Position numbers and translations under genes: made by a program. DNA of 64,000 nucleotides. Origin: Candidatus Oxydemutatoraceae bacterium (GTDB lineage: Bacteria; Pseudomonadota; Gammaproteobacteria; Poriferisulfidales; Oxydemutatoraceae). Under the pieces are notes generated by a model. That model did no database searches and was not told the DNA's origin. It saw only the letters and a program-made list of their open reading frames with translations. The stretch spans positions 879,216-943,215 of the forward strand of contig OZ243039.1 of the NCBI GenBank assembly GCA_965212025.1, read 5' to 3'. Position 1 is the first letter of the stretch. Every line of letters starts with the position of its first letter. Shown here piece after piece: positions 7,773 through 61,503 of the stretch.

Positions 7773-7774
7773 CC

Positions 7775-25460: not shown

Positions 25461-25498
25461 CTTGCGCGTTTTTCCGGTTATTAAGTTTGCGTATGTCT

Positions 25499-27094: not shown

Positions 27095-30000
27095 CAGGGT
27101 TCACCGCATAGCTGTCCTGAATTCGGTGGACATTGGTTCCGACCAGCCCCCCGGTGTAGGAACGGCCCTGTACCGTACCGAGCGCATAGCCCGCATGGAC
27201 AGAACCGGCGTTGAAGCCCACCAATCCACCAACACGCTCATCCCCGCTGACCGACACGTCGGCATAGCTGTATGCAATGGTGCTATTGCTGAAGCCAACC
27301 AGACCGCCGACGTGATCCCCTTCCTCAGCGGTGGCCGAACCTGTCGCATAACAGTGCAAAATCGTGCTTCCATGGCTGTAGCCAACCAGGCCGCCGGCGT
27401 AGTCCCGCCCTTCACCCGAGACGATCACCGCCGCGTCAGCACTGCTGTGCAAAATGGTGCCCCCCCGGATCCGACCGATCAAACCACCGGCAGACTCAAT
27501 CCCGCGTACCTGCGAAGCCCTCACCGTGCTGCCCACGACCCGACCTTTCCCTTTCACATAACCAACCAGGCCGCCGACGTATCTGCCTCCATCAACCACG
27601 GCACTGGCGCCACTGTTGACCAGCAACCCCCCGTTGCTACCTACCAACCCGCCAACACCGGTACCGACCGTGCTAAAAACCTGTGCAGACTTCACGACGC
27701 TGTTCATGACAGTCCCCCCGTTAAAGCCGACCAAGGCTCCGACTCTGTTTTTCCCCCTTACCCGTGCGTCAACGAGCACCACCCCCTTGACAGTCCCGTC
27801 TTCTGCAAGCCTGGAAAACAGGCCAACCTCGTCCGTTTGCGGGCGGTCAATGTACAAGGCAGAAATTTGCCGTCCTGCCCCGTCGAAGGTGCCTGAAAAA
27901 TTCTCTATCGGATGAAAGCCGGCACCGCCTTGCCACTCCCGACTCGGGCCGGCGTCTATGTCTGCCGCCAGTACGTAGTGGGCCTGCAGATCAGAGCGCA
28001 CGTCCTGTAACTGGCACAACGTGGCAATTTGCCACGGGTTGTCGCTGCTGCCGTCACCCGGCGCGCCTTTCAGACCTTTGCCGGCGCATTCCGGAAAGCG
28101 GGTCACCGTCCGGATCGTTGACGGCGACCCGGTGCCCACCGTGTTATGGGCGAAGGCTTCCAGCCGATATTCAAAGGCACCCACCAGTTCCGCAAACTCC
28201 ACTGTGACCGGGCTCAAAGGATCCACCGGCGCAACGTCGCGTTCCTGTACCAGCTCCCCGGACGCATACAGGCGTATCCGGTAAGCCAAACGCAAAGCCA
28301 CGCCTTCCGCAGGCGCTGCGTAACCGGCGTCACCCGGCCTGCGGCCATAACCATCATTGGAAGGGGGTGCAAAGCTGAGTCTCAGCGTGGAGATCCCCGG
28401 CACCACCCGCACATCAGCCGGAGAACCGGGAACGTCCAGCAGGCGCACGGAAACACGGGCGGCTTCGCCGACACCGTAAAGGTTGTAGCCACGAACCGTT
28501 AAAAGGGGCGTGCTCCCGCCTTCATGGTCAGCGCGCAGCTTCTGCAGCCAGTCCGGTTCCGCCATGAAGTAATCCGAGAGCGTCTCCCCGGAAAGCGCTC
28601 CACTTTCCACGCGGTGACCGATTCGTTCACGTCCGTCCAATGGGCGTTCCCAGCGCAGCAGCAAGACAGACGGGGATTTCCACTGTGCCTGCAGGCGCAA
28701 GGGTTTGCCGGGAGTCTCAAAGCCACGCAGAACCGGCAGCGCATTGTGATCGCCGAAGGACCAGACCTCGGCACTCCAGCCCAAGTACGTTGACCTTCCC
28801 GCACACGCCAGGCCAGGGGCGGTGGGGCAGCGCAGCTGCTGTAGTGTCCGCAGGGAGACTGATCCCTGCACGGTGTCATCTGCCACAAAAGGCACGATGC
28901 CAGCATTGACGCGGGTCAATCCTGCTGCATGGCTGTCGACGATGCTTCCCGGGCTGTTGCCGGCAAAGCTTCCGGGCTGTCCGACTCCGGACACCGACCC
29001 TGCCGCGTAGCTGCGGCTGACGGTGCCCTGGTTGTTCGCCACAAGACCCGCAACCAGACCTTTCCCAATCACAGAGGCTGTTGTGTAACTGTCAGTCACC
29101 GAGCCCTGGTTGTCTGCAACCAGACCACCCGCCAGGGCTGTTCCCGACACCAAGCCTCCGGCATGACTCGTGGCGATGCTCCCGCCTGTCAGGTTTTTTC
29201 CGACCAGGCCACCCGCGACCTGGGATCCCGGCTCCATCGTCAACCGGGCCGCGCTGCCTCTGATCACGCCTGCGTTAATGCCAACGAGTCCTCCTGCAAC
29301 CTGCCCGCCAAAAAGTGAACCTGTTGCTCCACTGTTCACGACCCTGCCTCCCACGTTCCTGCCCACCAGGGCTCCCACGTTGACGCTTCCCCAAAGCTGC
29401 GCGTTCACCAACACGACCTGCTGCAACAGACCGTCCTGAAGCTGCGCAAACATGCCGACATCTTCCAGTATCCCGGAGCGCACCCTTAAATGGAAAATCC
29501 GATAGCCGGCACCATCAAGGGAACCGGAAAAACCGGTGATCGGCGCAAAGCCTTCCCCGGCCCGCCAGTTCCGGGATGGACCTGCTTCAATATCGCCTGC
29601 CAGCCAGTAGTGGGCTGCAGGGGCGGAGCGAATATCCTGCAATTGGCACAGCGTGGCAATCTGCCAGGGATCGTCCTCGCTGCCCTCACTGTCCGGGCCG
29701 CTTGCCGATGCCAGGGCTTCCCCGTCGCACTGCCAGGGACGGGTAAATACCGGCAGGGAAAATGACGGTCCTTCCCCAATCCTGTTATAGGGCGTCGCCA
29801 CCACTTCATAGCGGCTGTCGCCTGCCAAACCCGAAAATTCCACGGCCGCAGATGTTTCTCCGTCTGTGTGCGTACGCTCCCGTTCCTGCACCGGTTCCCC
29901 CCCGGCGTACAGCCGTACCCGGTAGCCCAGACCTACGGAAACCCCGGCACCCGCATATCCGTATGCCGGGTCTTCCGGTGACTGGCCATAGCCGTCGTCA

Positions 30001-33000
30001 GCCGGAGCCATAAGCAACACACGCAGCGAGAACGCCTGCGCCGATGCCCGAACGGCTGCCAATTTACCTGGGGACTCCAGCAGCTCGATCGCAACCGCCG
30101 TTGCTTCACTCATGCCATGACGGTTATATCCACGTACGCTGACCTGCAGGGAGTTACCGCCCCCATATTTGGAACGGAGGCTTTGCAACACGTGCCCGCC
30201 GAGCGTAAAAAACGTGGACTCTGTTTCCAGGGAATACCCTGCCACCTCCACCCAATAGCCGGCGTTCAGGCTTCCTGTTTTCGCGGCTGTCCAACTCAAT
30301 TCCAGCTCATCTTCCAGGTTCCATTTCGCCTGCAGGCGGGAAGGGGAAGCTGGTGGCACCGGTTGCAGGGCGCGATGGACCGGAAGCGTCTGCCCGTCTC
30401 CGAAATACCAGACTTGGGTGCTCCAGCCGGAGTAACTGGCCGCTCCCTGGCACGTGTCTCCCGGCGAAAGGGGACACTGCAATTGCGCCAGCGTGCGGGA
30501 AAAACTGCTTCCTGCGGCGGCGGCGTCCCCGCTGCCCACGGGTTCCAGTGCGTTGCTGTCGGCACTCGGTTCCAGGGCGTAATTCGCAGCCATGCCGGTG
30601 CCAGTAGAGCGCCCCACCAGTGTGCCCACCTGATCATTCCCACTGACCAGGCCAGTCGCATAACTGTCCAAAATCCTGCTGTTATTGTTGGTGCCGAGTT
30701 CACTGTTTCCCACCAGTCCGCCTACCCGCTCATTTCCGCTGACCGGCCCGGTTGCGTAGCTTTCCCCGAGCCAGGACACATTGCGCCCCACCAGGCCACC
30801 CACAGCTCTTTCCCCGTTGACCGTTCCCGCCGAATAAGATCCGCCTATGAGACCAGAGCTATAACCTGCCAACCCGCCTACCTGCCCACTTCCGGTGACA
30901 GATCCGGTCGCGTGGCTACTGAGGATTGACCCAAAGCTTTCTCCTACCAGCCCTCCCACACCTCCTTTCCCGTTGACTGTTCCTGCCGAATAAGATCCGC
31001 TTATAAAGCCACGGTTAGAACCCGCCAGCCCGCCCACAGAATAATGCCCGTTTACTGCTGACTGCGCGTAACTGTGAAAGAGCGTAGCCCAATTGAGCCC
31101 CACCAGCCCACCAACATGTTCTACCCCGCTCACACTTCCTCTCGCGTGGGAACTGCGAATCCTCGCGCCCGTGAAGTTACTGCCCACCAATCCGCCTGTC
31201 ATAATGCTGCGACCCCAGGCACTAACGGTAGACTCCGAATAGCTGAGCTCAATCAACCCACGGTTCTCACCTGCCATTCCTCCCACACGATTCCGCCCGA
31301 CTGTCAACCCCGTCACCGTGCTGCCCTTGATGCTTCCATTCGCCTCAACGCGTCCTGCCAGAGCCCCTACTGCATCTCTGCCCCGCACCGTGACATCCAC
31401 CAGCGCCAGGTTTTGCAGGGAACCGCCGCTGAGCCTCCCGAACAGCCCGACATAGTCTACTGGCCCGGGATTGATCATGAGATTCAGAACGCTGTGGCCA
31501 CTCCCGTCCAGAGAGCCGGAAAAATATTCAATCGGAGGAAATCCCTTCCCGTCCCGCCAACCGTGGCTTTGCCTCGCGTCTATATCGTTTGCCAGCCGAT
31601 AATGCGCTGCCGTGTCATAACGTATTTCCTGCAGCTGGCAAAGTGTGCCGACCTGCCATGGATCATCCTCGCTGCCGGAGCCTGCTGCCGTTACCACCGC
31701 TGCCCATGGACATGCCTCAACGTAGGTGAAAAGCAGCACTTCCACCGTTGGGGTTGCGCCCGCTTTGTTTTTGGCAAATACCTTGACTTCGTACCTGGAA
31801 CTATCTTCCAGACCTGAAAATTCCACTACGGTCGAATTTGACCATCCCTGTTGTGTTACGCGCCGCTCTTCCTTCAACCGACCTTTTGAAAACAGCCGCA
31901 CGTGGTATGCCAGATCCAGGGCAATTCCGCCTGCCGGTTTCCCGTACATGCTGCTGCCCGGGGCACGTCCGTAGCCGTCACCGGCAGCCACGACAATGGT
32001 GACCCGTACCGTCGACAGCCCTGAAGCTGTCTGGATTTCCACCGCCCCCGGAACGTTCATTAAATGGAAACTCCCCGACGCTGCATCTCCCGCAACGCCT
32101 CCTCTGCTGCCGCGTATGGAATAATGGATTTCACTGCCGCCTGCGTAACGCCCACGCAATTCAGCCATCAATGCACTGCCAAACGTAAAACGGGATGCCC
32201 TGGCATCCCGAATGATTCCGTCCACCTCCACCTCAAAGAAATTAACGGCAGCTCCCCGATGCTCCCACCGCAGTGCCCATCTACCCTTCCAATTCCAGCC
32301 TGCCCGGACTGCAAGTGGTGCAGCGGGAACATCCGTAATTGCCCGGAGCACAGGCAGCGTGCGGGAGTGCCCGAAATGCCAAATTCGTGTATCCCAATCC
32401 AGATATACGCCAGCTGCCAGGCAAAGGTTGACGGGTTCTATCGAACACTTCATTTGCTCCACGGTGCGTAAGTCACTGTCCTGTACTGTGCTGTCATTCC
32501 TGCCCACGAGGCTATCCCCGTTGCCAAGCCTGCTGGCATAACTGCGGGCTATCGTGCCACTGTTGACTCCGACCAGCCGGCCTGTCAAAACAGCTCCGCC
32601 TACAGCACCGGTGCTATAGGCGCTTCTGACCGAACCGCTGTTTACCCCCGTCAGTCCGCCTGTCTGACTGTCTCCGGTGACTCTGCCTTGTGCATGGCTA
32701 TCACTGATGATTCCTTTGTTTTCACCGACCAGACCGCCGACTTGCTTCTTTCCACGTACTTCCCGGTATGCATAGCTATTCACGATGCTGGCGTTGCCTT
32801 CGCTCACACCCACCAAGCCCCCAATCCCGGAGGCTGTTCCGACAACCTCAGTATCCGAGTGGCTGCCACTGATGATGCCGCCAAGGTGCCAACCAACCAG
32901 GCCGCCGACTTGACTGTCTCCGGTCACTCTGCCTTGTTGTGCATGGCTACCACTGATGCTTCCTTTGTTTTCGCCAACCAGGCCGCCGACTTGACTGCCT

Positions 33001-35759
33001 CCGGTCACTCCGCCTTGTGCATGGCTGTCACTGATGGTTCCTTTGTTTTCGCCGACCAGACCGCCGACTTGACTGGGTCCGGTCACTCTGCCTTGTGCAT
33101 GGCTATTCACGATGCTGGCGTTGCCTTCGTTCACACCCACCAAACCCCCAACCCCGGTGGCTGTTCCGACAACCTGGTTATGCGCGTAGCTGCCACTGAT
33201 GGTGCCGTCAAGGTGCCGACCCACCAGACCGCCGACTTGACCGGATCCGGTCACTCTGCCTTGTGCATGGCTGTCACTGATGGTTCCTTTGTTTTCGCCG
33301 ACCAGACCGCCGACTTGACTGGGTCCGGTCACTCTGCCTTGTGCATGGCTATTCACGATGCTGGCGTTGCCTTCGCTCACACCCACCAAACCCCCAACCC
33401 CGGAGGCTGTTCCGACAACCTGGTTACGCGCGTAGCTATCACTGATGGTGCCGCCGCCAAGATGCCAACCCACCAGACCGCCTACGTAGCCTCCTGTGGC
33501 GTGAGTCCCGGTCACATCTCCAGTCGCGCGGCTGGAAGTGACCGAACCCATGTTTTTGCCCACCAGACCCCCAACTTGATTGCCTCCTGTTACTGTCCCC
33601 AACGCGCGACTGTCTTCAATCGTGCCACCGTCGTTCTGACCCACCAGCCCGCCGACAACGAATGCATCGCGGGAGTTCTCCCCAACATTTACCGTCGCCG
33701 TGCTGTTGCGAATGACACCGCCCTGATTCAGGCCAACCAGTCCACCGATGGTTCTGTACCCGTCAACCTTGCCATCAACTTCGCTGTCCTCAATCGTCCC
33801 CTGAACGTTCAGCCCAACCAGAGAACCGACATTCACCCCTTTTTTCGTCAAAAAATTCACCAGCTTCACGCGCCTTAGAAGGCCGTCCTGCAGCTTGCCA
33901 AACAGCCCGACATTCTCGAATTCTCCGCCCGCCACGCCAATCTTCAAATTGGAAATCTGGTAACCGTTGCCATCAAAAGTACCAGAAAAATCCTTGATTG
34001 GTGTAAAACCGTTTTCCCAGCCATGCGTCACAAACGCTTCTATATCTTTGATCTGGACATAGTGTGATTGGGGCGATGCCCCCATGTCTCGTAAATGGCA
34101 TAGGTTTTCTACCTGATAGGGATCACTTTCAGTCCCGGAACCTGCCATGGCTTGCGAATTCACAGGGCACGCGACCTCAGGATCCATATAGGGAAATTGG
34201 CTGCCATGAAAATAGGCATCCCCGTAGTTCAGTGCACTGAAGACCCTTGGATTTTTATAGATATTGCCCATCCCGGCAAAGAAGCCATTGCACTTGTTAA
34301 AAGAGACATAGACGCCCACCACGGATGACGTGTTCTCATAAAATGCCGGCGATCCGGAGCCTCCAAATTCAACACGGTAGCCCGTAAAAGGAGTCAAAAA
34401 CCGCCTTGCACAAACGACTCCTGAGCAAACAGCTGATTTCGGCGTATCCGGATCCAAAGTGAATGTAAACGCGTTTCTGAATGGGGAATATTGCTGCGCC
34501 AGCAAATACGAGTGGTGCAATGCGTAGCCATCGAAGACCTCTGGGCTATGCGCCTTCCAGTCCAGTAGCTCGTAATTCCCCCAGCCACTGAACTGTCCTA
34601 CGATGCGCACCAGCCCCCAGTCATTTGCAGCACTCCCTGCTATAAATCTTGAGCCACCCGCCCGTGCCCGTCCCGCTGCTTCGCTTTTAAGTACAACGCT
34701 GAAATCGCTATTGATATAAGGCTTGTTTTCAGCATTGGGGTCATCCACATCTGCCGCGAAAAGATGCCAGACAGACAGGGCGTAGAGCGCACCGTCCCCT
34801 GACTTGTTTTTCAGCAAACTCCCGGTACCGCACCCTGCCCCCTGTTCGCCATACGCGCAGATGAGCACAGTGCCCAGGGAAGCCCTGCGCACGTGCGCAG
34901 GCATGTCGCTGTTCACAAAATCGGCAGTGTTTTCCGTTTTGTCGTGATACTGGCATTCTCCAGACCGCGCCTGGAATTTTTGCAGTTGTGTGCCTGGCAA
35001 CTCGCCGTTCCTGTCTTTGAAAGTGTGATTGACTTTTTCTACGGCGAACGGAAATGCATCGGGTTCCAGGCGGGACGCTGTGGGAGTCCTGAACTCCACC
35101 ACTATGGCGTCTCCTGACATCGGATATGACCAGAATCCGTCTCTGTTTCCGTCTCTGTTTCCGGCTCGACCCTCGCCGGTATATTCCTCAACAGGGTCTT
35201 GTTCGTCAGTTAGGCTGTACAGCTTCACCGCCATGCCTGGATCCAGATGAAAATTCCTGAGGTACACCCCCAGACTGACGGCTGCAGGGGAATGAATATG
35301 CGCCTGCCAGACATCAAAACCATCTTCCTGTTTGACCAGCGCCCAGTTGGCGCGCCGCAAACGGACTTCCCGATAGATACCGGTGTAGTTGACTGTGCTC
35401 ACGTTGAGCAGCTCCAGGATTTTGTCTTCTTCCTGCGTGCTGAAAGCTCCCAGATCCAGTCGTTGCGCTCTGGTGGGGTACACGCTCCGGGCGGCCTCGC
35501 GCGCGTGACGCACTTCCGGCAGGGGGCTGGCCGAGAAGCTTTGATCTACCAGAGATTCCTGACCCTGGCCAAAAACGGGCACGTTTGACGTGATGATGAA
35601 TACACCCACGATCAACCACTTCCGCCAGCCATGGCTGGCGGAACTCTGCGTATCCAGAGATCTGAAACCTGCTTTTTTCATCGTGAATGGCTTATGGGCC
35701 ATGCGAACCGAGAAAGGAGAGTGTAACCCACCTACAACATAAAATTCCTGCCACAACAT
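27030..35759 (-). CDS. Giant secreted modular protein: N-terminal trypsin-like serine peptidase domain followed by four modules of GGLVG (GLUG-like) beta-repeats, a Cys-linker and an Fn3-like domain
   Basis: The ORF is 2909 aa, and with the downstream fragment totals about 3,400 aa. The N-terminus has a long basic region and a hydrophobic core (MKKAGFRSLDTQSSASHGWRKWLIVGVFIITSNVPVFG|QG). A GGSGSP motif (coding nt ~34350-34370) and a VWH segment resemble the PA-clan serine protease catalytic Ser and His contexts. A module entry motif recurs four times (DPYQVENLCHLRD..., DPWQVGTLCQLQEI..., DPWQIATLCQLQDI..., NPWQIATLCQLQDV...). Dozens of VGGLVGxN repeats follow, and each module has a conserved linker of the form TLxQLxCPxxxGxxCxGAxxYxGWxxxVWxFGxxxxLPVLRA. 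The likely true start is 35702 or 35681. Confidence 0.75.
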   Translation of the reverse strand: MLWQEFYVVGGLHSPFSVRMAHKPFTMKKAGFRSLDTQSSASHGWRKWLIVGVFIITSNVPVFGQGQESLVDQSFSASPLPEVRHAREAARSVYPTRAQRLDLGAFSTQEEDKILELLNVSTVNYTGIYREVRLRRANWALVKQEDGFDVWQAHIHSPAAVSLGVYLRNFHLDPGMAVKLYSLTDEQDPVEEYTGEGRAGNRDGNRDGFWSYPMSGDAIVVEFRTPTASRLEPDAFPFAVEKVNHTFKDRNGELPGTQLQKFQARSGECQYHDKTENTADFVNSDMPAHVRRASLGTVLICAYGEQGAGCGTGSLLKNKSGDGALYALSVWHLFAADVDDPNAENKPYINSDFSVVLKSEAAGRARAGGSRFIAGSAANDWGLVRIVGQFSGWGNYELLDWKAHSPEVFDGYALHHSYLLAQQYSPFRNAFTFTLDPDTPKSAVCSGVVCARRFLTPFTGYRVEFGGSGSPAFYENTSSVVGVYVSFNKCNGFFAGMGNIYKNPRVFSALNYGDAYFHGSQFPYMDPEVACPVNSQAMAGSGTESDPYQVENLCHLRDMGASPQSHYVQIKDIEAFVTHGWENGFTPIKDFSGTFDGNGYQISNLKIGVAGGEFENVGLFGKLQDGLLRRVKLVNFLTKKGVNVGSLVGLNVQGTIEDSEVDGKVDGYRTIGGLVGLNQGGVIRNSTATVNVGENSRDAFVVGGLVGQNDGGTIEDSRALGTVTGGNQVGGLVGKNMGSVTSSRATGDVTGTHATGGYVGGLVGWHLGGGTISDSYARNQVVGTASGVGGLVGVSEGNASIVNSHAQGRVTGPSQVGGLVGENKGTISDSHAQGRVTGSGQVGGLVGRHLDGTISGSYAHNQVVGTATGVGGLVGVNEGNASIVNSHAQGRVTGPSQVGGLVGENKGTISDSHAQGGVTGGSQVGGLVGENKGSISGSHAQQGRVTGDSQVGGLVGWHLGGIISGSHSDTEVVGTASGIGGLVGVSEGNASIVNSYAYREVRGKKQVGGLVGENKGIISDSHAQGRVTGDSQTGGLTGVNSGSVRSAYSTGAVGGAVLTGRLVGVNSGTIARSYASRLGNGDSLVGRNDSTVQDSDLRTVEQMKCSIEPVNLCLAAGVYLDWDTRIWHFGHSRTLPVLRAITDVPAAPLAVRAGWNWKGRWALRWEHRGAAVNFFEVEVDGIIRDARASRFTFGSALMAELRGRYAGGSEIHYSIRGSRGGVAGDAASGSFHLMNVPGAVEIQTASGLSTVRVTIVVAAGDGYGRAPGSSMYGKPAGGIALDLAYHVRLFSKGRLKEERRVTQQGWSNSTVVEFSGLEDSSRYEVKVFAKNKAGATPTVEVLLFTYVEACPWAAVVTAAGSGSEDDPWQVGTLCQLQEIRYDTAAHYRLANDIDARQSHGWRDGKGFPPIEYFSGSLDGSGHSVLNLMINPGPVDYVGLFGRLSGGSLQNLALVDVTVRGRDAVGALAGRVEANGSIKGSTVTGLTVGRNRVGGMAGENRGLIELSYSESTVSAWGRSIMTGGLVGSNFTGARIRSSHARGSVSGVEHVGGLVGLNWATLFHSYAQSAVNGHYSVGGLAGSNRGFISGSYSAGTVNGKGGVGGLVGESFGSILSSHATGSVTGSGQVGGLAGYSSGLIGGSYSAGTVNGERAVGGLVGRNVSWLGESYATGPVSGNERVGGLVGNSELGTNNNSRILDSYATGLVSGNDQVGTLVGRSTGTGMAANYALEPSADSNALEPVGSGDAAAAGSSFSRTLAQLQCPLSPGDTCQGAASYSGWSTQVWYFGDGQTLPVHRALQPVPPASPSRLQAKWNLEDELELSWTAAKTGSLNAGYWVEVAGYSLETESTFFTLGGHVLQSLRSKYGGGNSLQVSVRGYNRHGMSEATAVAIELLESPGKLAAVRASAQAFSLRVLLMAPADDGYGQSPEDPAYGYAGAGVSVGLGYRVRLYAGGEPVQERERTHTDGETSAAVEFSGLAGDSRYEVVATPYNRIGEGPSFSLPVFTRPWQCDGEALASASGPDSEGSEDDPWQIATLCQLQDIRSAPAAHYWLAGDIEAGPSRNWRAGEGFAPITGFSGSLDGAGYRIFHLRVRSGILEDVGMFAQLQDGLLQQVVLVNAQLWGSVNVGALVGRNVGGRVVNSGATGSLFGGQVAGGLVGINAGVIRGSAARLTMEPGSQVAGGLVGKNLTGGSIATSHAGGLVSGTALAGGLVADNQGSVTDSYTTASVIGKGLVAGLVANNQGTVSRSYAAGSVSGVGQPGSFAGNSPGSIVDSHAAGLTRVNAGIVPFVADDTVQGSVSLRTLQQLRCPTAPGLACAGRSTYLGWSAEVWSFGDHNALPVLRGFETPGKPLRLQAQWKSPSVLLLRWERPLDGRERIGHRVESGALSGETLSDYFMAEPDWLQKLRADHEGGSTPLLTVRGYNLYGVGEAARVSVRLLDVPGSPADVRVVPGISTLRLSFAPPSNDGYGRRPGDAGYAAPAEGVALRLAYRIRLYASGELVQERDVAPVDPLSPVTVEFAELVGAFEYRLEAFAHNTVGTGSPSTIRTVTRFPECAGKGLKGAPGDGSSDNPWQIATLCQLQDVRSDLQAHYVLAADIDAGPSREWQGGAGFHPIENFSGTFDGAGRQISALYIDRPQTDEVGLFSRLAEDGTVKGVVLVDARVRGKNRVGALVGFNGGTVMNSVVKSAQVFSTVGTGVGGLVGSNGGLLVNSGASAVVDGGRYVGGLVGYVKGKGRVVGSTVRASQVRGIESAGGLIGRIRGGTILHSSADAAVIVSGEGRDYAGGLVGYSHGSTILHCYATGSATAEEGDHVGGLVGFSNSTIAYSYADVSVSGDERVGGLVGFNAGSVHAGYALGTVQGRSYTGGLVGTNVHRIQDSYAVNPVVGESGSIGSLVGHSESGRCD
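32680..33480. repeat. Intragenic near-identical tandem DNA repeats (246 bp, 82 codons, about 3 copies) inside the giant gene
   Basis: The unit starting CCGGTCACTC(C/T)GCCTTGTGCATGGCTGTCACTGATGG recurs at 33001 and 33247 with over 95% identity, and a more diverged copy lies upstream. The units encode GGLVG repeat blocks. Confidence 0.8.
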
Positions 35760-53712: not shown

Positions 53713-55421
53713 GAAGTGATTTCCAGTTTGGGAACCAGATAATCGACGCAGTCATCCAAAGCGATTTCCTTTGTAAGGCCGGTGGCTCTTTCCGTGCATT
53801 CAACGATTTGTCGCTCCAGGTTTCTTGAGCCAACCGTCAGTCGCCAGGGGATGCCTATCAAATCGGCGTCGGCAAACATGACGCCTGGTCGCACATCACG
53901 GTTGTCAAGCAGCACTTCCACCTTGCGCTGCAGAAGTTCCTGGTAGAGCCTTTCTGCGGTCTCCAGTGTTTGCGGTGTGTGCCGGAAGCCCAGTGGGCAG
54001 ATTGTCACAGCGAATGGTGCAATGGCGCGCGGCCAGATAATTCCCTGCGCATCATGGTTCTGCTCTATGCAGGCTGCAACGATTCTGCTGATACCGATTC
54101 CGTAGCAGCCCATGATCAAAGTCAGTTCTTCGCCCTGTTCGTTGTCTACTGTGGCTCCCATACATTCGCTGTATTTCTTTCCCAGCTTGAAAATGTGTCC
54201 GACTTCAATTCCATGCCTGATGGTCAGGCTTCCTGTGCCACTCGGGCTTGGGTCGCCAGCCACCGCGCATCGCAAGTCGTGTACCTCGTAGTCGCTGACG
54301 TCTCGATCCCAGTTCACTCCAAGATAGTGTTTGCCATCCTGGTTTGCCCCGCAGGCAAAATCTGACAGACATGCTGCCGACTGATCCAACAGGATAGGCA
54401 CCTTGAGGTTCACCGGGCCGAGTGAGCCAGGAGACGCTCCTGCAACTGCCCTGATTTCTTCCGGGGTGCTGAAGCAAACCGGCTCTGCAATCAGCGGGTG
54501 CTTTTTGGCTTTTTCGGGGTTCATTTCGTGGTCACCACGCACAAAAACAGCGACCAGGGGGGTTGCTTTGCCCTTTAGAAACAAGGCTTTCAGACACCTG
54601 GAAGGCGGAATTTTCAACAACTCGCTGAGTTCCGCGATCGTGCTGACCCCCGGCGTGTCCACGAGCCGCATGGTTTCAGCAGGAGAGGCACGCTTGCCTG
54701 CATAAATAACGGGAGCCAACTCCACATTGGCCGCGTAATCATCCCCTGTGGAAAAGGCGATGGCATCCTCACCGCAATCTGCCAGTGCGTGAAACTCGTG
54801 CGAGCCAACACCACCTATATTTCCCATCTCTGCCTGCACATAACGGTAATCAAGCCCGATGCGGTCGAATATGCGGCAGTACGCTTTGCGCATGTCCTCG
54901 TATGTCTCATCCAGAGATTGCGTGTCGTAATGAAAGGAATAGGCGTCTTTCATGAGAAATTCACGCGCGCGCATCACCCCGAATCGGGGGCGAATTTCAT
55001 CGCGGAACTTTGTCTGGATCTGGTAAAAATTTACCGGCAGTTGCCGATAGGTAGTGAGCCCGGAACGTACCAGTTCAGTTATCACTTCCTCGTGGGTCGG
55101 TCCCAAAACCATATCCCGCTTGTGGCGATCCTGGAATTTAAGCAGTTCCTCTCCGTACTCGTACCAGCGCCCGGATTTTTTCCACAGATCCGCCGGCTGC
55201 ACTGTCGGCATCAGCACCTCCAGCGCCCCGGCACGATCCATTTCCTCGCGGACTATGGCTTCAATTTTTCGCAGCACCCGCACTCCCAAGGGCAGCCAGC
55301 TATATAGCCCGCTTGCCACCTTGTCAATCAAAGCGGCGCGTAACATGAGCCTGTGGCTTGTGGTTTCCGCGTCCGCGGGAGCTTCGCGAAGTGTGCTGAG
55401 AGGGTATCGGGAGGTGCGCAT
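53709..55421 (-). CDS. proS: Proline--tRNA ligase
   Basis: The 570-aa product has class II aaRS motifs, the N-terminus MRTSRYPLSTLREAPADAE and an editing-domain insertion. Confidence 0.95.
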   Translation of the reverse strand: MRTSRYPLSTLREAPADAETTSHRLMLRAALIDKVASGLYSWLPLGVRVLRKIEAIVREEMDRAGALEVLMPTVQPADLWKKSGRWYEYGEELLKFQDRHKRDMVLGPTHEEVITELVRSGLTTYRQLPVNFYQIQTKFRDEIRPRFGVMRAREFLMKDAYSFHYDTQSLDETYEDMRKAYCRIFDRIGLDYRYVQAEMGNIGGVGSHEFHALADCGEDAIAFSTGDDYAANVELAPVIYAGKRASPAETMRLVDTPGVSTIAELSELLKIPPSRCLKALFLKGKATPLVAVFVRGDHEMNPEKAKKHPLIAEPVCFSTPEEIRAVAGASPGSLGPVNLKVPILLDQSAACLSDFACGANQDGKHYLGVNWDRDVSDYEVHDLRCAVAGDPSPSGTGSLTIRHGIEVGHIFKLGKKYSECMGATVDNEQGEELTLIMGCYGIGISRIVAACIEQNHDAQGIIWPRAIAPFAVTICPLGFRHTPQTLETAERLYQELLQRKVEVLLDNRDVRPGVMFADADLIGIPWRLTVGSRNLERQIVECTERATGLTKEIALDDCVDYLVPKLEITS

Positions 55422-55442
55422 CAGTCAGGCAAATCCCGTTGG

Positions 55443-55928
55443 CTAAAGCTGGGTCGGGTTGGGTTGCCCGCCATACACTGTTTCCGGGTCAATCAATTTT
55501 TCGCGTATCGTGCGTTGCAACTGTATGGTCTCACTGGTTTTTCCAACCGGGATTTTCCGATAGAAGCAAGAGCGGTAACCGACGTGGCAACTGACAGTCC
55601 CGGCAACGATCACGCGTAGCCATAAAGCGTCCTGATCATCGTCAACCAGCATCTCCCGGACTTCCTGAACAAAACCGCTGACTTCGCCTTTGCGCCAGAG
55701 TGCCTTTCGGCTTCTGCTCCAGTAATGAGCCTGTCCGGTTTCGACGGTTTTCAAAAGTGCAGTGGCGTTCATATAAGCGTGCATCAGCACCTCGCCGCTG
55801 TGAAAGTCAGTCGTCACAACCGGGATCAGACCGTCTTTGTCAAACTTTGGGGCGAAGTCCGTACCTTCTTCCACTTGGGCGACTTCGAGACGTGGAGCGA
55901 AAGGCCCTGCTTTTATTTCAGCCATCAA
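55443..55928 (-). CDS. hisI: Phosphoribosyl-AMP cyclohydrolase
   Basis: [41 protein letters not shown] is the HisI signature. It is a stand-alone gene, not fused to hisE. Confidence 0.85.
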
Positions 55929-55931
55929 TTT

Positions 55932-56183
55932 TTAGCTCTGCTGCTTTTCTTTGGAGCGTACAGGTACGGGGTCATGACCCCCTTCGTTCCAAGGGTGGCA
56001 ACGTGCGATTCTTTTCAACGTGAGCCACACACCACGCATGGTACCGTATTCACGCAGACATTCTATGGCGTACATTGAACAGGTGGGAGTGAACCGGCAA
56101 TGCATTCCAAGCCAGGGGCTGACCAGATAGCGATAGGCTTTGATCGTCTCGATCAGCAAGTTTTTCACTGCCATCGCCGCCAC
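55932..56183 (-). CDS. yidD: Membrane protein insertion efficiency factor YidD (copy 1)
   Basis: [74 protein letters not shown] is the YidD/DUF37 signature. Confidence 0.8.
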   Translation of the reverse strand: MAAMAVKNLLIETIKAYRYLVSPWLGMHCRFTPTCSMYAIECLREYGTMRGVWLTLKRIARCHPWNEGGHDPVPVRSKEKQQS

Positions 56184-56411
56184 ACGGTTTTGGTGTGCAA
56201 ATCTTCCAGCGTGACACCGGCTTCGTGCAGTTGCGCACGGATTTCGTCAGCGCGAGAAAAATCGCCCGCTTCGCGAGCCGCCTTTCGCTTGGTGATCCAT
56301 TCCTCCACTTCCTGGTCGGCAATCTTGAATGCATGTTCCGACTCCCAGCGAAACCAGGTCTGTTTCGGGACGTGGAGCGAAAGGCTCTGCTTTTATTTCA
56401 GCCATCAATTT

Positions 56412-56660
56412 TTAGCTCTGCTGCTTTTCTTTGGAGCGTACAGGTACGGGGTCATGGCCCCCTTCGTTCCAATGGCAACGTGCGATTCTTTTCAACGTGA
56501 GCCACACACCACGCATGGTACCGTATTCACGCAGACATTCTATGGCGTACATTGAACAGGTGGGAGTGAACCGGCAATGCATTCCAAGCCAGGGGCTGAC
56601 CAGATAGCGATAGGCTTTGATCGTCGCGATCAGCAAGTTTTTCACTGCCATCGCCGCCAC
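56412..56660 (-). CDS. yidD: YidD (copy 2, 82 aa, one residue shorter)
   Basis: It differs from copy 1 only by E12A and an in-frame 3-bp deletion ([10 protein letters not shown] becomes RCHWNEGGH). Confidence 0.7.
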
Positions 56661-56888
56661 ACGGTTTTGGTGTGCAAATCTTCCAGCGTGACACCGGCTT
56701 CGTGCAGTTGCGCACGGATTTCGTCAGCGCGAGAAAAATCGCCCGCTTCGCGAGCCGCCTTTCGCTTGGTGATCCATTCCTCTACTTCCTGGTCGGCAAT
56801 CTTGAACGCATGTTCCGACTCCCGGCGAAACCAGGTCTGTTTCGGGACGTGGAGCGAAAGGCCCTGCTTTTATTTCAGCCATCAATTT

Positions 56889-57140
56889 TTAGCTCTGCTG
56901 CTTTTCTTTGGAGCGTACAGGTACGGGGTCATGGCCCCCTTCGTTCCAAGGGTGGCAACGTGCGATTCTTTTCAACGTGAGCCACACACCACGCATGGTA
57001 CCGTATTCACGCAGACATTCTATGGCGTACATTGAACAGGTGGGAGTGAACCGGCAATGCATTCCAAGCCAGGGGCTGACCAGATAGCGATAGGCTTTGA
57101 TCGTCGCGATCAGCAAGTTTTTCACTGCCATCGCCGCCAC
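56889..57140 (-). CDS. yidD: YidD (copy 3, adjacent to full-length cysS)
   Basis: Its start overlaps the cysS stop (ATGGCAGTGA), which is the ancestral arrangement. Confidence 0.8.
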
Positions 57141-58495
57141 ACGGTTTTGGTGTGCAAATCTTCCAGCGTGACACCGGCTTCGTGCAGTTGCGCACGGATT
57201 TCGTCAGCGCGAGAAAAATCGCCCGCTTCGCGAGCCGCCTTTCGCTTGGTGATCCATTCCTCTACTTCCTGGTCGGCAATCTTGAACGCATGTTCCGACT
57301 CCCAGCGAAACCAGGTCTGTGGTGATTGTTGGAGCAAACCCAGGCAGGAGGCAGCTGACAACAAAGAAAATGCATCACCAGCATTCGCCAGGGCGTGCAG
57401 TCCGGTCAGCGCTTGCGGGGTATTCAAGTCTTCGCCAAGTGATTCCAGAACGATCGTGCCATCCTGTTTGTCGATGTTTCCCTGATTCTGAAAATCTGCG
57501 AAGTCCTGGTCGGAAAAAGCGCGATACAGCCGATCCAGCGCTGCCTTGGCGTGTACCAGTGTTTGCTTCGACCAGTCCAGTGGCTTGCGGTAATGGGTGT
57601 TCAGCAAGGCATAGCGAATGGTTTCACCGTGGTGCCTGCTCAGAACCTCGCGCAAAGTCACGAAGTTCCCGAGTGATTTGGCCATTTTTTCATTTTTAAC
57701 GGTGACATGGCCATTGTGCAGCCAGTAACGCGCAAAAACATCGGTGCCGTGTGCGCGGCAACTTTGCGCAATTTCATTTTCATGGTGCGGAAAAACCAAG
57801 TCATGGCCGCCACCGTGAATGTCTATGGTTTGTCCCAAATGGGTTGCTGCCATGGCTGAACATTCGATGTGCCAGCCGGGTCTGCCCCGTCCCCAGGGAC
57901 TGTCCCAGCCAGGATGCTCCGGGGTCGATGGTTTCCACAGCACGAAATCGGTGGGTGCCCGCTTGTAGGAAGCGACTTCCACCCGGGCTCCAGCACGCAG
58001 TTGCTCAGTCTGTCGTCCAGACAGGCACCCGTAGTGGCGCCAGGAGCTGATGTCGAACAGCACGTGCCCTTCGGCCTCGTAAGCGGAGCCATTGGCAAGC
58101 AGGCGTTCGATCATCGCGATCATGTAAGGCACGTGTTCGGTCGCCTTGGGCTCAGTTGTTGGGGGAAGCAGCCCCAGTTTCCCGGAGTCTTCCGAGAACG
58201 CACGTCCGTATTTTTCTGCGACATCGCTCGCTGTCACACCGGTGGCTTGCGAAGCAGCAATGATTTTGTCGTCTATATCGGTAACGTTTCGCAAATAGAG
58301 GACTTCTCTGTAGTATTTTTTCAGGAGGCGGTAAAGCGTGTCGAACACCACCAGAGGGCGGGCGTTGCCAATGTGAACGTAGTCATAGACAGTCGGACCA
58401 CACACATACATGGTGACCCGATCCTTGTCCAGCGGTCTGAAAACGTCCTGCTTGGCCGAAAGCGTGTTGTACAGCCTGATCTGCATGGCTTTCAA
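57122..58495 (-). CDS. cysS: Cysteine--tRNA ligase
   Basis: The HIGH motif ([15 protein letters not shown]), the KMSKS-type motif (KMAKSLGN) and a zinc-binding Cys are present. Confidence 0.95.
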
Positions 58496-58518
58496 CGATG
58501 TGTACCGACTAGTCGGAA

Positions 58519-61503
58519 TTATTCATTTTCGTCCGTTTCAACCTGTGTGTACTGTTTGGTCACCCGTGCAAAAGTGCTGCGTGGTTGCACGTCTTTTTCA
58601 GTGACAGCTTCTGTTTCCCGTGTGGCTTCCAGGTTGGCAGCGTAGGGTTCAGCGGAACCGGCCGCCGGTTCAGAAGTGCTGTGTGTTTGCGTGTCTTTTT
58701 CAGTGACAGGCTCTGTTTCCCGTGTGACTCCCAGGTTGGCAGCATGCAGTTCAGCGGGACTGGCCGCCGGTTCAAAGGTGCTGTGTGTTTGCGTGTCTTT
58801 TTCAGTGACAGGCTCTGTTTCCCGTGTGGCTTCCAGGCTGGCAACATGCAGTTCAGCGGGACTGGCTCGCCTGGGCCCGGTACCTGTCATCGTGCCAACT
58901 CTGCCCGCAGGGGCAAAGAATTTTGTTGTCCCATTATTTCGTTGCTGACCGGTTTTTCCAAAAGAAGACGCAGGTACAGGTGTGTTCCTGCTTTCTCCCG
59001 ATGTCGGGCGTGACATGTTTTCCGGCCTCGGCTCAAATTGCTCCGAGCCTGTCTCATTCCGCCTTCTCTGCCGCGCAGGCTGCTGACGTTTTCCCATGCT
59101 TGCGGATCGCTGCCACTCCATTCCTACCGGTTCATGTCTTGTTTCAGTCCTCACGGAGCTCCGTTGCGAGGCTCTCTCCGGGCGGTCATGTTGGCGCTGT
59201 GACCCATACTGTTGACCAGCTCTTATCGGTTCCTGTTGCCGTTGCGCAGGCTCATACTGTCTGCCCGCCCCCACCGGTTCACGTTGCCGGCGAGTAGATC
59301 CATACTGCCGGTTTGTCCTGAGCGGTTCCTGTTGCCGCCGTACAGGTTCGTACCGTCCATCCTCTCGCACCGGCTCTTGTTGTTCATGCACTGCCCGGTG
59401 TTGCACTTGCGCGCCTCTGGATTGCGACGCTTCCTCACCAGGGAAGAGATTTTCTTCATAAGGTCTATTGGTTCGTCTGTTCATTTTTCTTTTGACACCG
59501 GGGTAACGCTCTGAGGCGAATTGCCTTCTGGAGTCGCCATTCTGATTTGCCTGGAAGTCATCCTGACCCTGCGAAGAACGGCGGGATTGACTTTTTTCAG
59601 TTACCGGTGGTGAAGCAATTTCCGAACCGGAGTCATAGCGGGAGGAAAATCCCGCATTATGCCTGCCGTAAGACGAACGTGAACGACCTCCTCTGATCGG
59701 CCGCCCGGCTGAGTCCGAAATTTGTCGCCCTCTCTCCTTGTACGTAGCCCTACTGGTTTGGTGACTGGTCGACGAGGCTCGGCCAGGAACTTGAGCACGG
59801 TCTTCCGGGGAGCTTTTTTGCTCCTTGACCGGCTTGGGTGACGAGGAGAAAAACTTGCCAAACCAGCGACCCAAAAGGCCGCCAACTTGCTTTTCCCCGT
59901 GTGCGGAAGCTTTTATCGGGGTCACTCCCGTCTGTTCAGTCTCAGGAGCGGAAGGTTGCGTATATCTCAGTTGCGCCGGGTAGTTGCCATTCGCAGCAGG
60001 TTTTGTTTTGAAAGCCTCTGGGGATTGGTCGGTACGAAAGCCCTTGATTTCAAAGTTGGGGTTTTTCATGCCCGGAACCGGGATCATAAACAGAGTGACT
60101 TTGTGCTGTGACTCAAGCTTATCCACCTCATTGCGCTTTTCGTTCAGAAAATACGCAGCCATTTCCACAGGCAGCTTTGCCACCACCGACACGATCTGTT
60201 CTTGCTCGGCCTCGCGCACAATGGAACGGAACACCTCCAAAGTATTGGATTCAATGGTACGTACCCAGCCGCTTCCATCACAGTGCTGGCAAATCAGATG
60301 GCTCGACTCGCTAAGTGATGTGCGTAGTCGCTGACGTGACATTTCAAGCAGTCCAAAGCTGGAGATATTGCCAATCTGGTTCTGTGCCCGGTCGTATCTC
60401 ATGGAGCGACGCATGACGTCTTCCACGGTTTCACGGTCTTTATCCGAGACCATGTCAATAAAATCAACGACGATAAGGCCGCCGGCATCCCTCAGCCTGA
60501 GTTGCAAGGCAATTTCTTTTGCTGCTTCCACATTCGTGTTCAGAGCCGTGGTTCCAATGTCAGCCCCGCGGATCGACTTGGCAGAATTGACGTCTATGGA
60601 CAGTAGCGCCTCTGTTTGGTCGAAAACAATTTTTCCGCCTTGGGGGAGGTCAGTTATCCGCTCAAAAGCGGTTCCAATTTTTGCCTCAATTTTGTAGGTG
60701 GTGAACAGCGGGGAGTCACCGTCATGCATCATGATTTTGTCGATCTGTGTAGGCATGGAAGTTTCCATGTAACGTTTCGCCTCTTCGTAGACATCCGGGT
60801 TGTCAAAAATCACTTTTTCAACATCGGATCCCATGTGATCGCGTAGCGTATGGATGACCACGTTTCCCTCACGGTAGATGAGGGACGGCGGTTTCTCGGT
60901 TCTCGCCAGGTTGACAATGTCTTGCCACAGGTTCCTGAGGTTGTTCAGGTCCCACATCAATTCTTCTTCACCGCGTCCAATACTTGCTGTTCTTAAAATG
61001 ATGCCTTCGCTGGGCTGATACTTAGTATTCGAAAAAATATCCTGCATGTGGGCACGATGGCTTTCTTTGGCATGTTTGGTGATTCGCATGCCTGACCAAG
61101 GGCTGTTCGGCATCAAAACCAGGAAACGGCCGGGGATTCTTATGTAGGTAGAAAGCAGAGCCCCTTTATTGCCAATTTCGCCTCGATTCAGCTGTACAAG
61201 AAGCTCTTGTCCCTCTTTGACGAAGCCGCGGTTTGAGTCTTCCCCTTCAGAAGGCGACCCGATATTTTTGCTGAAGTCGCGGGCAATTCCCTTGAACGGC
61301 AGAAAGCCATGCTTTGCCTCGCCGTAGTCAACGAAGACAGCGTTCAGTCCCCTCTCTACGCGGGCGACTGTGGCCTTGTAGATGTTTCCTTTAAGCTGCT
61401 TCCGGTGAGAGCTTTCTATGTTGAGATCTTGTAATTCCGTCCCCTGGAGGATGGCTACGCGCACCTCTTCTTTGTGCGTAGCGTTGACAAGGATATTTTT
61501 CAT
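58519..61503 (-). CDS. rne: Ribonuclease E
   Basis: The N-terminal catalytic region (S1 domain, DNase I-like fold, Zn-link) aligns with E. coli RNase E (MKNILVNATHKEEVRVAILQG...). A long Arg/Pro/Glu-rich C-terminal scaffold gives 994 aa. Confidence 0.9.
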   Translation of the reverse strand: MKNILVNATHKEEVRVAILQGTELQDLNIESSHRKQLKGNIYKATVARVERGLNAVFVDYGEAKHGFLPFKGIARDFSKNIGSPSEGEDSNRGFVKEGQELLVQLNRGEIGNKGALLSTYIRIPGRFLVLMPNSPWSGMRITKHAKESHRAHMQDIFSNTKYQPSEGIILRTASIGRGEEELMWDLNNLRNLWQDIVNLARTEKPPSLIYREGNVVIHTLRDHMGSDVEKVIFDNPDVYEEAKRYMETSMPTQIDKIMMHDGDSPLFTTYKIEAKIGTAFERITDLPQGGKIVFDQTEALLSIDVNSAKSIRGADIGTTALNTNVEAAKEIALQLRLRDAGGLIVVDFIDMVSDKDRETVEDVMRRSMRYDRAQNQIGNISSFGLLEMSRQRLRTSLSESSHLICQHCDGSGWVRTIESNTLEVFRSIVREAEQEQIVSVVAKLPVEMAAYFLNEKRNEVDKLESQHKVTLFMIPVPGMKNPNFEIKGFRTDQSPEAFKTKPAANGNYPAQLRYTQPSAPETEQTGVTPIKASAHGEKQVGGLLGRWFGKFFSSSPKPVKEQKSSPEDRAQVPGRASSTSHQTSRATYKERGRQISDSAGRPIRGGRSRSSYGRHNAGFSSRYDSGSEIASPPVTEKSQSRRSSQGQDDFQANQNGDSRRQFASERYPGVKRKMNRRTNRPYEENLFPGEEASQSRGAQVQHRAVHEQQEPVREDGRYEPVRRQQEPLRTNRQYGSTRRQREPVGAGRQYEPAQRQQEPIRAGQQYGSQRQHDRPERASQRSSVRTETRHEPVGMEWQRSASMGKRQQPARQRRRNETGSEQFEPRPENMSRPTSGESRNTPVPASSFGKTGQQRNNGTTKFFAPAGRVGTMTGTGPRRASPAELHVASLEATRETEPVTEKDTQTHSTFEPAASPAELHAANLGVTRETEPVTEKDTQTHSTSEPAAGSAEPYAANLEATRETEAVTEKDVQPRSTFARVTKQYTQVETDENE
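58574..58880. repeat. 3 copies of a 102-bp (34-codon) tandem repeat in the rne C-terminal scaffold coding region
   Basis: The unit start GTGCT recurs at 58574, 58676 and 58778. It encodes repeats of the form ...RETEPVTEKDTQTHSTxEPAAxxAE.... Confidence 0.8.

Follow-up and report, generated by a model that had tools for sequence, protein, structure and literature searches.

Tandem duplication-amplification in bacteria is known from Salmonella and from antibiotic heteroresistance; such amplifications are normally unstable and lost without selection, and joins with microhomology and joins without any homology are both recognised (PMC11721125). The gene amplified at the locus described here, yidD, encodes a factor that aids YidC/Sec-dependent membrane protein insertion, a role known only from experiments in E. 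coli (Yu et al. 2011, cited in PMC8082313). At our locus yidD occurs three times in succession between cysS and hisI. We consider this arrangement to be probably a genuine lineage-specific 480-bp tandem triplication, its copy number being that of one assembly, and a passenger with next to no effect on fitness, in a lineage that both makes and keeps short tandem duplications, rather than an amplification selected for YidD dosage.

All coordinates are positions in the window, the stretch of 64,000 nt that was analysed, and the genes of the array all lie on the minus strand (Table 1). Tandem Repeats Finder detects at 55884-57320 a repeat of period 480 with 3.0 copies, 98% matches and a score of 2804, consisting of head-to-tail units of 480, 477 and 480 bp, and the same three copies are found by a repeat search and by self-BLAST with start-to-start spacings of 477 and 480 bp. 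The origin of a repeat of such length and identity by chance is far beyond expectation. Each unit comprises the final 65 codons of cysS and the whole of yidD and ends at hisI codon 14, yidD being the sole complete gene within it. A preliminary description of this DNA had proposed a triplication between cysS and hisI in the order cysS, yidD, junction, yidD, junction, yidD, hisI. The three search methods confirm the triplication, and the gene order and the endpoint at hisI codon 14 were also correct. The unit length of about 477 bp given there applies to copy B only, copies A and C measuring 480 bp, and in place of about 68 cysS codons per unit we find 199 nt, corresponding to 65 sense codons, the stop codon and 1 nt. 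An origin mediated by a mobile element or IS was considered and rejected, as the search for inverted repeats in 55000-58500 gave none and the window is free of dispersed repeats.

Table 1. Coordinates of the array, its joins and the genes involved (positions in the window; a slash marks the point of joining)
Feature	Position	Strand	Description
cysS, full length	57122..58495	-	cysteine--tRNA ligase; PF01406 E 5.9e-121; TIGR00435 475 bits (cut-off 340)
Unit U1 (copy C)	56841..57320	-	480 nt; functional cysS tail (199 nt), yidD-C, dead hisI head (14 codons)
yidD-C	56889..57140	-	83 aa; PF01809 103.3 bits; TIGR00278 85.8 bits
Novel join 1 (U1/U2)	56835..56846	-	in gene orientation ...CGTCCCGAA/ACAGACC...
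Junction ORF 1	56724..56885	-	53 aa from TTG; hisI head (14 codons from ATG) and out-of-frame cysS tail
Unit U2 (copy B)	56364..56840	-	477 nt; dead cysS tail (56642-56840), yidD-B, dead hisI head
yidD-B	56412..56660	-	82 aa; PF01809 92.9 bits; TIGR00278 79.6 bits
Novel join 2 (U2/U3)	56358..56369	-	sequence identical to join 1
Junction ORF 2	56247..56408	-	53 aa; built like junction ORF 1, upstream of yidD-A
Unit U3 (copy A)	55884..56363	-	480 nt; dead cysS tail (56165-56363), yidD-A, functional first 14 hisI codons
yidD-A	55932..56183	-	83 aa; PF01809 102.3 bits; TIGR00278 84.9 bits
hisI, full length	55443..55928	-	phosphoribosyl-AMP cyclohydrolase; PF01502; NF000768 152 bits (cut-off 126)

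All three yidD frames are open, as had been claimed before, and their products exceed the curated YidD cut-offs of Pfam (PF01809, 27 bits) and NCBIfam (TIGR00278, an equivalog, 40 bits). The conserved cysteine and proline motifs CRFxPTCS ... RCHP ... GGxDP are found in copies A and C. yidD-C does not differ from the ancestral sequence inferred for the array. In yidD-B the proline of RCHPW is deleted, leaving RCHW in an open frame; this proline is kept in all nine YidD homologues compared, and the Pfam score of yidD-B lies 10 bits below that of yidD-C. yidD-A contains one synonymous change and the derived substitution Ala12Glu, which introduces a charged residue. A PDB sequence search with YidD found no relative. 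The neighbouring genes are assigned by scores above curated cut-offs (Table 1): the cysS ORF starts with TTG at 58495, the gene calls of relatives using the ATG at 58486, and its product is 91% identical to P0001 and 81% to P0002; hisI starts with ATG at 55925 or TTG at 55928.

The array was compared with five related contigs (L081-L085), the CysS proteins of which are 91-92% identical to the one encoded here in L081, L083, L084 and L085 and 81% in L082. Each of the five contains a single unit with one yidD, the stop of cysS and the start of hisI being exactly 240 bp apart, and the array is therefore specific to the lineage studied. The sequence CGTCCCGAA/ACAGACC across the joins is missing from all five, yidD running straight into hisI there. 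In a search of genome contigs with CysS the identity reached at most 53% among the matches listed, which carry mixed alpha- and gamma-proteobacterial labels.

How did the three copies come to differ? Altogether they show seven substituted positions and a 3-bp deletion. The earlier account had correctly noted the in-frame deletion in the second copy but had counted only about three substitutions. Pairwise, C differs from A by five substitutions, C from B by two substitutions and the deletion, and B from A in ten alignment columns. When polarised with the five outgroup contigs, these differences form a tree that places A outside a pair of B and C, with three private changes in A, three in B and none in C; two further changes are common to B and C. 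These common derived states are GTA in column 58, which is synonymous in the functional cysS tail and for which copy A retains the ancestral GTG, and the C at the junction in column 476. Copy B alone has TGG>CGG at 56824 in the tail, the loss of 3 nt at ~56472 in yidD, and GGG>GAG at 56383 in the hisI head, and private to copy A are GCG>GCA in the tail and, within yidD, Ala12Glu and GGC>GGT. The divergence between copies had already been put forward as an argument against a simple assembly stutter, reasonably so, and the argument becomes stronger because the differences form a tree when polarised with outgroups.

A subtler artefact would be one of copy number, the duplication being real and the third unit a product of the assembler, which could for example have threaded two two-unit strains in succession. 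The haplotypes flanking the two joins do differ, with GGG before and CGG after the one and GAG before and TGG/GCA after the other, as could be the case for two two-unit strains, and in the sister species four co-assembled strains from one sample differ at 0-5 of 480 sites, the same range as among the copies of the array. Moreover, an independent assembly of the species was not found: exact-protein look-ups with CysS (457, 454 and 429 aa) and YidD (83 and 80 aa) returned no match, and two scans of JGI metagenomes, with the 34-nt join and with a degenerate 37-nt yidD pattern, gave 0 hits each. However, even under this explanation the novel join must be present in real molecules, and near-identical tandem repeats are usually collapsed by assemblers and not expanded. 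An entry of the cysS cluster, P0124 (429 aa, 100% identical over its length), resides on a contig of 1,918,571 bp, and the names of related records (ctgNNN_67x_c and the like) suggest a long-read metagenome assembler, the reads of which would span the 1.4-kb array. In addition, a tree with A apart from B and C and with the ancestral state in A is what a two-step history predicts. We regard an assembler-made third unit as distinctly improbable.

The joins themselves are informative about the origin of the array. Both link hisI codon 14 to the third base of a proline codon of cysS with 0 nt of microhomology, and both contain the derived C, reading CCC as opposed to CTC in the real hisI. Identical joins without microhomology, together with the tree, fit one illegitimate duplication that was followed by homologous expansion. 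In a first step an illegitimate, homology-free event would have joined codon 14 of hisI to cysS at the position from which 65 codons remain, giving the duplication cysS, yidD, junction, yidD, hisI. The upstream unit would then have acquired the T>C change beside the join and the synonymous GTG>GTA change in cysS. In a second step, homologous unequal exchange or slippage between the 480-bp units would have added a C-type unit, the present copy B; a copy B wholly of C type would require that this exchange fell in the unit's first ~55 nt, or else gene conversion. Thereafter B and A would each have gained their three private changes. Copy C, which shows no change and would have kept its coupling to the end of cysS, is likely the working yidD, and B and A are likely redundant and drifting, B having lost the RCHP proline and A carrying Ala12Glu.

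What does the duplication do to the expression context of the copies? The preliminary description had pointed out an overlap between the start of yidD and the stop of cysS. It amounts to 19 nt when counted from GTG and to 10 nt from ATG, and the 19-nt overlap also exists in the relatives. Downstream, a gap of only 3-6 nt separates the yidD-A stop from the start of the real hisI. This gene geometry suggests translational coupling of cysS, yidD and hisI. In the array an overlap with the stop of a full-length translated cysS exists for yidD-C only. The cysS-frame remnants upstream of yidD-B and yidD-A contain no plausible start, and the nearest translated ORF stops 63 nt away, so that start/stop overlap or abutment with a translated upstream gene is found at yidD-C and at hisI after yidD-A and neither at yidD-B nor at yidD-A. 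In the junction ORFs the 14 codons of hisI lead into the cysS tail in the frame used by yidD. These ORFs end after 52-53 codons at a TGA located 63 nt ahead of the following yidD, for junction ORF 1 ahead of the GTG of yidD-B. Contrary to what the notation hisI-head+cysS-tail of the preliminary description might suggest, the two parts are not fused in frame, the cysS tail being read out of frame. Ribosomes leaving an upstream yidD would probably enter at the start of the hisI head and synthesise a nonsense peptide of 52-53 residues, and since this peptide would end 63 nt before the next yidD, the downstream copies would be deprived of their native termination-reinitiation context.

A promoter scan, which performed at chance level, revealed no promoter-like site within the unit. 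Terminator-like sites number 10 as compared to 4.8 +/- 2.3 in shuffled sequences, all of them within coding sequence, and one such site, a hairpin with a T run, is found in each cysS tail. Rfam, searched with 55400-57500 at E <= 1, yielded no RNA family; two tRNAs are found in the window as a whole. Long antisense ORFs on the plus strand (e.g. 56577-57035) have no Pfam match. The relatives have a similar antisense ORF as well, and such ORFs were treated as a by-product of composition.

The tight packing of cysS, yidD and hisI, with the overlap on one side and the short gap on the other, implies that the array necessarily alters the coupling context of hisI. Selection could accordingly have acted through the neighbours, if about 960 nt of poorly translated spacer uncoupled hisI and proS from cysS or lowered them relative to it, or if the junction peptides were functional, and the hairpin in each cysS tail would be in keeping with such an effect. 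Yet the junction ORFs match no Pfam family and differ from one another, and the terminator-like sites lie within coding sequence, their count being inflated because the repeat causes two unit-internal sites to be counted three times each. We consider a benefit through the neighbours highly improbable.

Another explanation would be an adaptive amplification, in which selection keeps the array for the higher level of the membrane-insertion factor that three yidD genes would give. yidD alone is intact in the unit, none of the three ORFs is interrupted and each far exceeds the family cut-offs, and the lone indel is in frame; with only three events in the extra copies, weak purifying selection on them is possible. 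Moreover, tandem repeats tend to be unstable when no selection acts (PMC11721125), and yet this array has lasted until its copies differed by about 1%. With efficient homologous recombination a 480-bp tandem repeat would not be expected to last so long, which could point to selection, and the three copies may be kept for dosage or may be starting to diverge in function. Against this stand several observations: 1) copy B is without the RCHP proline and copy A has the derived charged residue 12; 2) with 3 events in 504 nt, the extra yidD copies have accumulated changes at no lower a density than the dead flanking fragments, which show 4 in 456 nt; 3) the downstream copies have lost the overlap with a translated cysS; 4) an internal promoter is not predicted; 5) the lineage also keeps tandem duplications of the same or a greater age in which no gene is complete. 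In E. coli yidD is reportedly non-essential and its loss is said to have mild effects, which leaves no obvious reason for selection on dosage. The earlier suggestion of a classic amplification that may raise YidD dosage is, given the state of B and A, the lost coupling and a change density like that of dead fragments, unsupported, and we consider an adaptive amplification unlikely. The array is real but an ordinary tandem duplication, and nothing shows selection for more YidD.

The duplications without a complete gene deserve closer consideration. At 23420-24278 of the window a unit of 428/431 bp, comprising the last ~31 codons of ftsZ and non-coding DNA, occurs twice with 18 differences, and in L082 a 322-bp unit, in which the tail of an SDR gene is fused to the head of the next gene (SLT_4), occurs twice at 10716-11359 with 10 differences. 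Like the yidD array, both consist of units in the range of 322-480 bp with a copy identity of 96-99%; each unit begins in the 3' part of a gene and ends in a spacer or in the first codons of the next gene, and each duplication is found in one genome and is absent at the syntenic site of comparable others. They differ from the array in having two copies and no complete gene as compared to three copies and a complete gene, and the microhomology at the joins is 9 nt in L082, about 4-5 nt at ftsZ and 0 in the array. These cases indicate that persistence of a tandem duplication does not require a complete gene. Three independent cases, each 1-4% diverged, in less than 80 kb examined of an uncultured proteobacterial clade with genomes of ~1.9-3.0 Mb raise the tentative and rather doubtful idea that the array is an instance of a lineage trait, namely the making of several-hundred-bp tandem duplications that span gene boundaries and a failure to delete them. 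If true, homologous deletion or repair would be unusually weak in this lineage or selection very weak, and the arrays would constitute a standing source of gene fusions, such as the in-frame ORF of SLT_4 head and SDR tail in L082, as well as of spare genes like the additional yidD copies.

As a single locus the array carries little weight, tandem duplication being a textbook route of genome change and YidD a minor accessory factor. It offers a clean natural case, small and settled, with a readable history of homology-free join, homologous exchange and early decay of redundant copies. For annotation, one yidD should be taken as probably functional and the other two as doubtful, and both hisI-head ORFs as spurious. 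The recurrence of duplications in the lineage is of more interest and, if genome-wide, would be informative on recombination and repair or on population size.

How does the locus compare with what has been described? With the known YidD family it shares membership in PF01809 and TIGR00278, all three ORFs scoring above the cut-off. It differs in its position between cysS and hisI with a start that overlaps the cysS stop, a position common to the five related contigs, and in having three copies, one of them without the RCHP proline. With the tandem duplication-amplifications of Salmonella and of antibiotic heteroresistance (PMC11721125) it shares the head-to-tail repeats and the one novel join at every unit boundary, and like them it keeps an intact copy of each broken gene at its ends and fits two steps, an illegitimate join and then homologous expansion between units. 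In contrast, its unit is only 0.48 kb long, whereas the resistance amplifications cited are much larger, e.g. 7-13 kb for sdrM (PMC11721125), and as judged from the DNA neither a selective agent nor a benefit of dosage appears evident for it. The divergence of about 1% between its copies and the damaging in-frame deletion suggest that the array is old and settled rather than a fresh, unstable amplification.

Between cysS and hisI one segment occurs three times head-to-tail (480, 477 and 480 nt), as reported by Tandem Repeats Finder (period 480, 3.0 copies, 98% matches, score 2804) and recovered again by a repeat search and self-BLAST of the window, neither of which found a fourth copy elsewhere in the 64 kb. 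Every gene at the locus lies on the minus strand, with rne upstream of cysS and proS after hisI. Since the repeat calls agree and the gene identities exceed the curated thresholds of Pfam and equivalog models, the triplication with three yidD genes between cysS and hisI that the preliminary description had claimed is confirmed, all three genes matching PF01809 and TIGR00278. In gene order the units are called C, B and A.

Coordinates of the array, its genes and the other repeats (window positions unless a related contig is named)
Feature	Position	Strand	Remarks
yidD array	55884-57320		
cysS	57122-58495	-	PF01406, TIGR00435 equivalog
yidD-C	56889-57140	-	PF01809, TIGR00278 equivalog
53-codon ORF, first	56724-56885	-	
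yidD-B	56412-56660	-	PF01809, TIGR00278
53-codon ORF, second	56247-56408	-	
yidD-A	55932-56183	-	PF01809, TIGR00278
hisI	55443-55928	-	PF01502, NF000768 equivalog
rne	58519-61503	-	
Repeat within rne	58569-58871		102-bp unit, three copies
ftsZ duplication	23420-24278		428/431-nt unit, two copies
Non-coding array	24222-25464		144-bp unit, 8.7 copies
531-aa ORF	25499-27094		fibronectin type III match
2909-aa ORF	27030-35759	-	
Repeats within 2909-aa ORF	32652-33482		78 and 246 bp
L081 hisI	7605-8083		
L082 duplication	10716-11359		322-nt unit, two copies
L082 fusion ORF	11008-11313		101 aa

Read in gene orientation, each unit opens with the final 199 nt of cysS, made up of one base, 65 sense codons and the stop codon, continues through yidD and a spacer of 3-6 nt, and closes with hisI codons 1-14. 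The GTG start of yidD precedes the cysS end by 19 nt, an in-frame ATG by 10 nt. Both internal joins read CGT CCC GAA/ACA GAC C (slash, breakpoint), and as the real hisI continues GAA/GTC and the real cysS reads CC/ACAGACC the partners have no base in common at the breakpoint, that is, the join is without microhomology. The hisI head and cysS tail, previously written as one composite, do not form an in-frame fusion; the ORFs read the cysS tail in the yidD frame and end at a TGA 63 nt ahead of the next yidD start codon. In the cysS frame the two internal tails have no credible start codon of their own.

A search with the CysS protein led to a small clade of sequences from large contigs, and five contigs were compared. 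Four of them (L081, L083, L084 and L085) represent a sister species with CysS 91-92% identical to that of the window and come from a single ENA sample (ERZ25071281), the L083 contig being 2,997,607 bp long, labelled circular and covered 67x; the more distant L082 is a 2,000,500-bp circular contig with 81% CysS identity. All five share the gene order rne, cysS, yidD, hisI, proS, DUF4156, SDR, SLT_4, and in all five exactly 240 bp separate the cysS stop from the hisI start, with a single yidD and the 19-nt overlap kept. Because each of the five has a single unit, the triplication is, by sequence comparison, derived and specific to the lineage of the window. Between window and L083, 7.4% of all cysS positions are changed, rising to 13% when third codon positions are taken by themselves. 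Of the 480 sites of the unit, 36-41 separate it from the sister species, and 0-5 of 480 in this cysS-yidD-hisI region separate the four sister-species strains from one another; any two copies of the array are distinguished by 5-10 alignment columns. Set against these strain and species differences, the age of the array is roughly that of normal divergence between strains of one species, neither fresh nor ancient. As to annotation, the gene calls of the five contigs include yidD just once despite intact ORFs verified directly in L081-L083, so automatic annotation often misses this gene.

Alignment of the copies revealed seven substituted positions and one 3-nt deletion, more than the about three substitutions counted originally.

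Differences between the copies, polarised against the five related contigs (columns numbered along the unit in gene orientation)
Column	Change	Copy	Location
17	TGG>CGG	B	non-functional cysS tail
34	GCG>GCA	A	non-functional cysS tail
58	GTG>GTA	B and C; A retains ancestral G	cysS tail, synonymous in working cysS
215	Ala12Glu	A	yidD
369-371	3-nt deletion	B	yidD; Pro of RCHPW removed
387	GGC>GGT	A	yidD, synonymous
458	GGG>GAG	B	non-functional hisI head
476	T>C	B and C	adjacent to both joins; T in real hisI and four closest outgroups, A in L082

Copy C has no private change, and the changes common to B and C give the tree (A,(B,C)). A two-step origin predicts such a tree, and an assembler stutter would not yield it, which upholds the earlier argument from copy divergence. 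Another artefact would be that the assembler concatenated a pair of co-occurring strains, either of them carrying two units, and so created the third unit. The flanking variants do differ between the two joins, and the sister species is present as four strains in one sample, co-assembled at coverages of 5x (L081), 67x (L083), 17x (L084) and 17x (L085); on the other side, the contig of origin is 1.92 Mb long, the contig names of related records resemble those given by a long-read metagenome assembler, and assemblers tend to collapse near-identical repeats rather than expand them. Such a concatenation is therefore improbable. At least a duplication is real, since the join has to be present in genuine DNA, and the copy number is less certain than the duplication itself. 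In L081 hisI looks frameshifted near its 3' end (ORF of 143 aa, the last 18 residues matching in another frame), probably a consensus error at the low 5x coverage, and a warning that some contigs of the data set contain errors.

How could the array have arisen? The ancestor had a single copy, one homology-free join occurs twice in identical form, and unit B agrees with C wherever a site is informative. An illegitimate join may first have created a duplication, whose upstream unit would then have gained the T>C beside the join and the GTA in cysS, and the two 480-nt units could subsequently have given rise to the third by slippage or by homologous unequal exchange. A wholly C-type B would require the exchange to lie no further than ~55 nt into the unit, or else a later conversion that made B and C alike; this strains the two-step model mildly and does not contradict it. 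For bacterial amplifications homology-free joins have been described, and repeated homology drives expansion and contraction (PMC11721125).

Does the array raise YidD dosage, as was suggested? The sequence evidence leans against it. The proline lost from copy B is present in nine of nine YidD homologues (three relatives, six more distant genomes), and the Pfam score drops from 103 to 93 bits in this copy. At the position of the derived Glu of copy A, L081 and L083-L085 have Ala and L082 has Ser. The extra yidD copies carry three events in 504 nt and the non-functional fragments four in 456 nt, the fragments being the parts of two cysS tails that precede the yidD start and two hisI heads with their spacers. 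By these counts, far too small for a test, the extra genes look no more tightly constrained than the fragments. Inspection by eye showed no Shine-Dalgarno-like sequence ahead of yidD, and in all six genomes the gene starts before the cysS stop, which suggests that its translation is coupled to that of cysS; the native overlap with cysS is retained by copy C alone. A promoter scan detected no promoter-like site within the unit.

Similar duplications are found nearby. A second segmental duplication in the window (~96% identity, 18 differences) spans the last ~31 ftsZ codons, including the conserved C-terminal peptide LDVPAFLNKQAD, and ~330 nt of downstream non-coding DNA, with a join at ~4-5 nt of microhomology and a TGA in the second copy in place of the TAA of ftsZ. 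In L082 a unit that takes in the final ~88 SDR codons and ends at codon ~11 of the SLT_4 lipoprotein gene is repeated in tandem with 10 differences, its join lying at the 9-nt microhomology GCTTTGCTG and creating an in-frame ORF of SLT_4 head and SDR tail; the SDR/SLT_4 pair of the window has no such duplication. By self-BLAST all repeats of the window are tandem and none dispersed. Since the clade thus holds three independent 300-480 bp duplications across gene boundaries in less than 80 kb, these sequences suggest a general duplication tendency in the lineage, of which the yidD array would be one outcome, yidD being included because it is small enough to fit between two breakpoints. Going by the parallel cases, persistence of a duplication in this lineage would need no selected gene, a further point against the dosage reading.

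Other repeats were also observed. Directly downstream of the ftsZ duplication lies a non-coding array (~92% identity) with eight exact copies of a 34-mer and no Rfam family match, the first ~55 nt of its unit also forming the end of the ftsZ duplication unit; ORFs across it are probably spurious. The RNase E C-terminal region has tandem repeats of differing period in every genome examined (in-frame copies at 89% identity in the window; 114, 102 and 216 bp in L083; 96 and 54 bp in L082), whence this tail evolves by repeat turnover. The 2909-aa ORF with its internal repeats and the neighbouring 531-aa ORF may mark a candidate large repetitive surface protein.

Altogether, the original finding is real and right in outline and over-interpreted as to function; of its aspects, only the recurrence of tandem duplications in the lineage might justify a survey of the whole genome. 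As members of their family the yidD genes are unremarkable, and they lie in the context cysS-yidD-hisI, in contrast to E. coli, where the order is rnpA-yidD-yidC (PMC8082313). Unlike well-studied amplifications, the array has a very small unit, diverged copies, one of them with a damaging deletion, and no apparent selective agent. In kind, as judged by its direct repeats, one novel join at each boundary and single-copy ancestor, it would be a bacterial tandem duplication-amplification.
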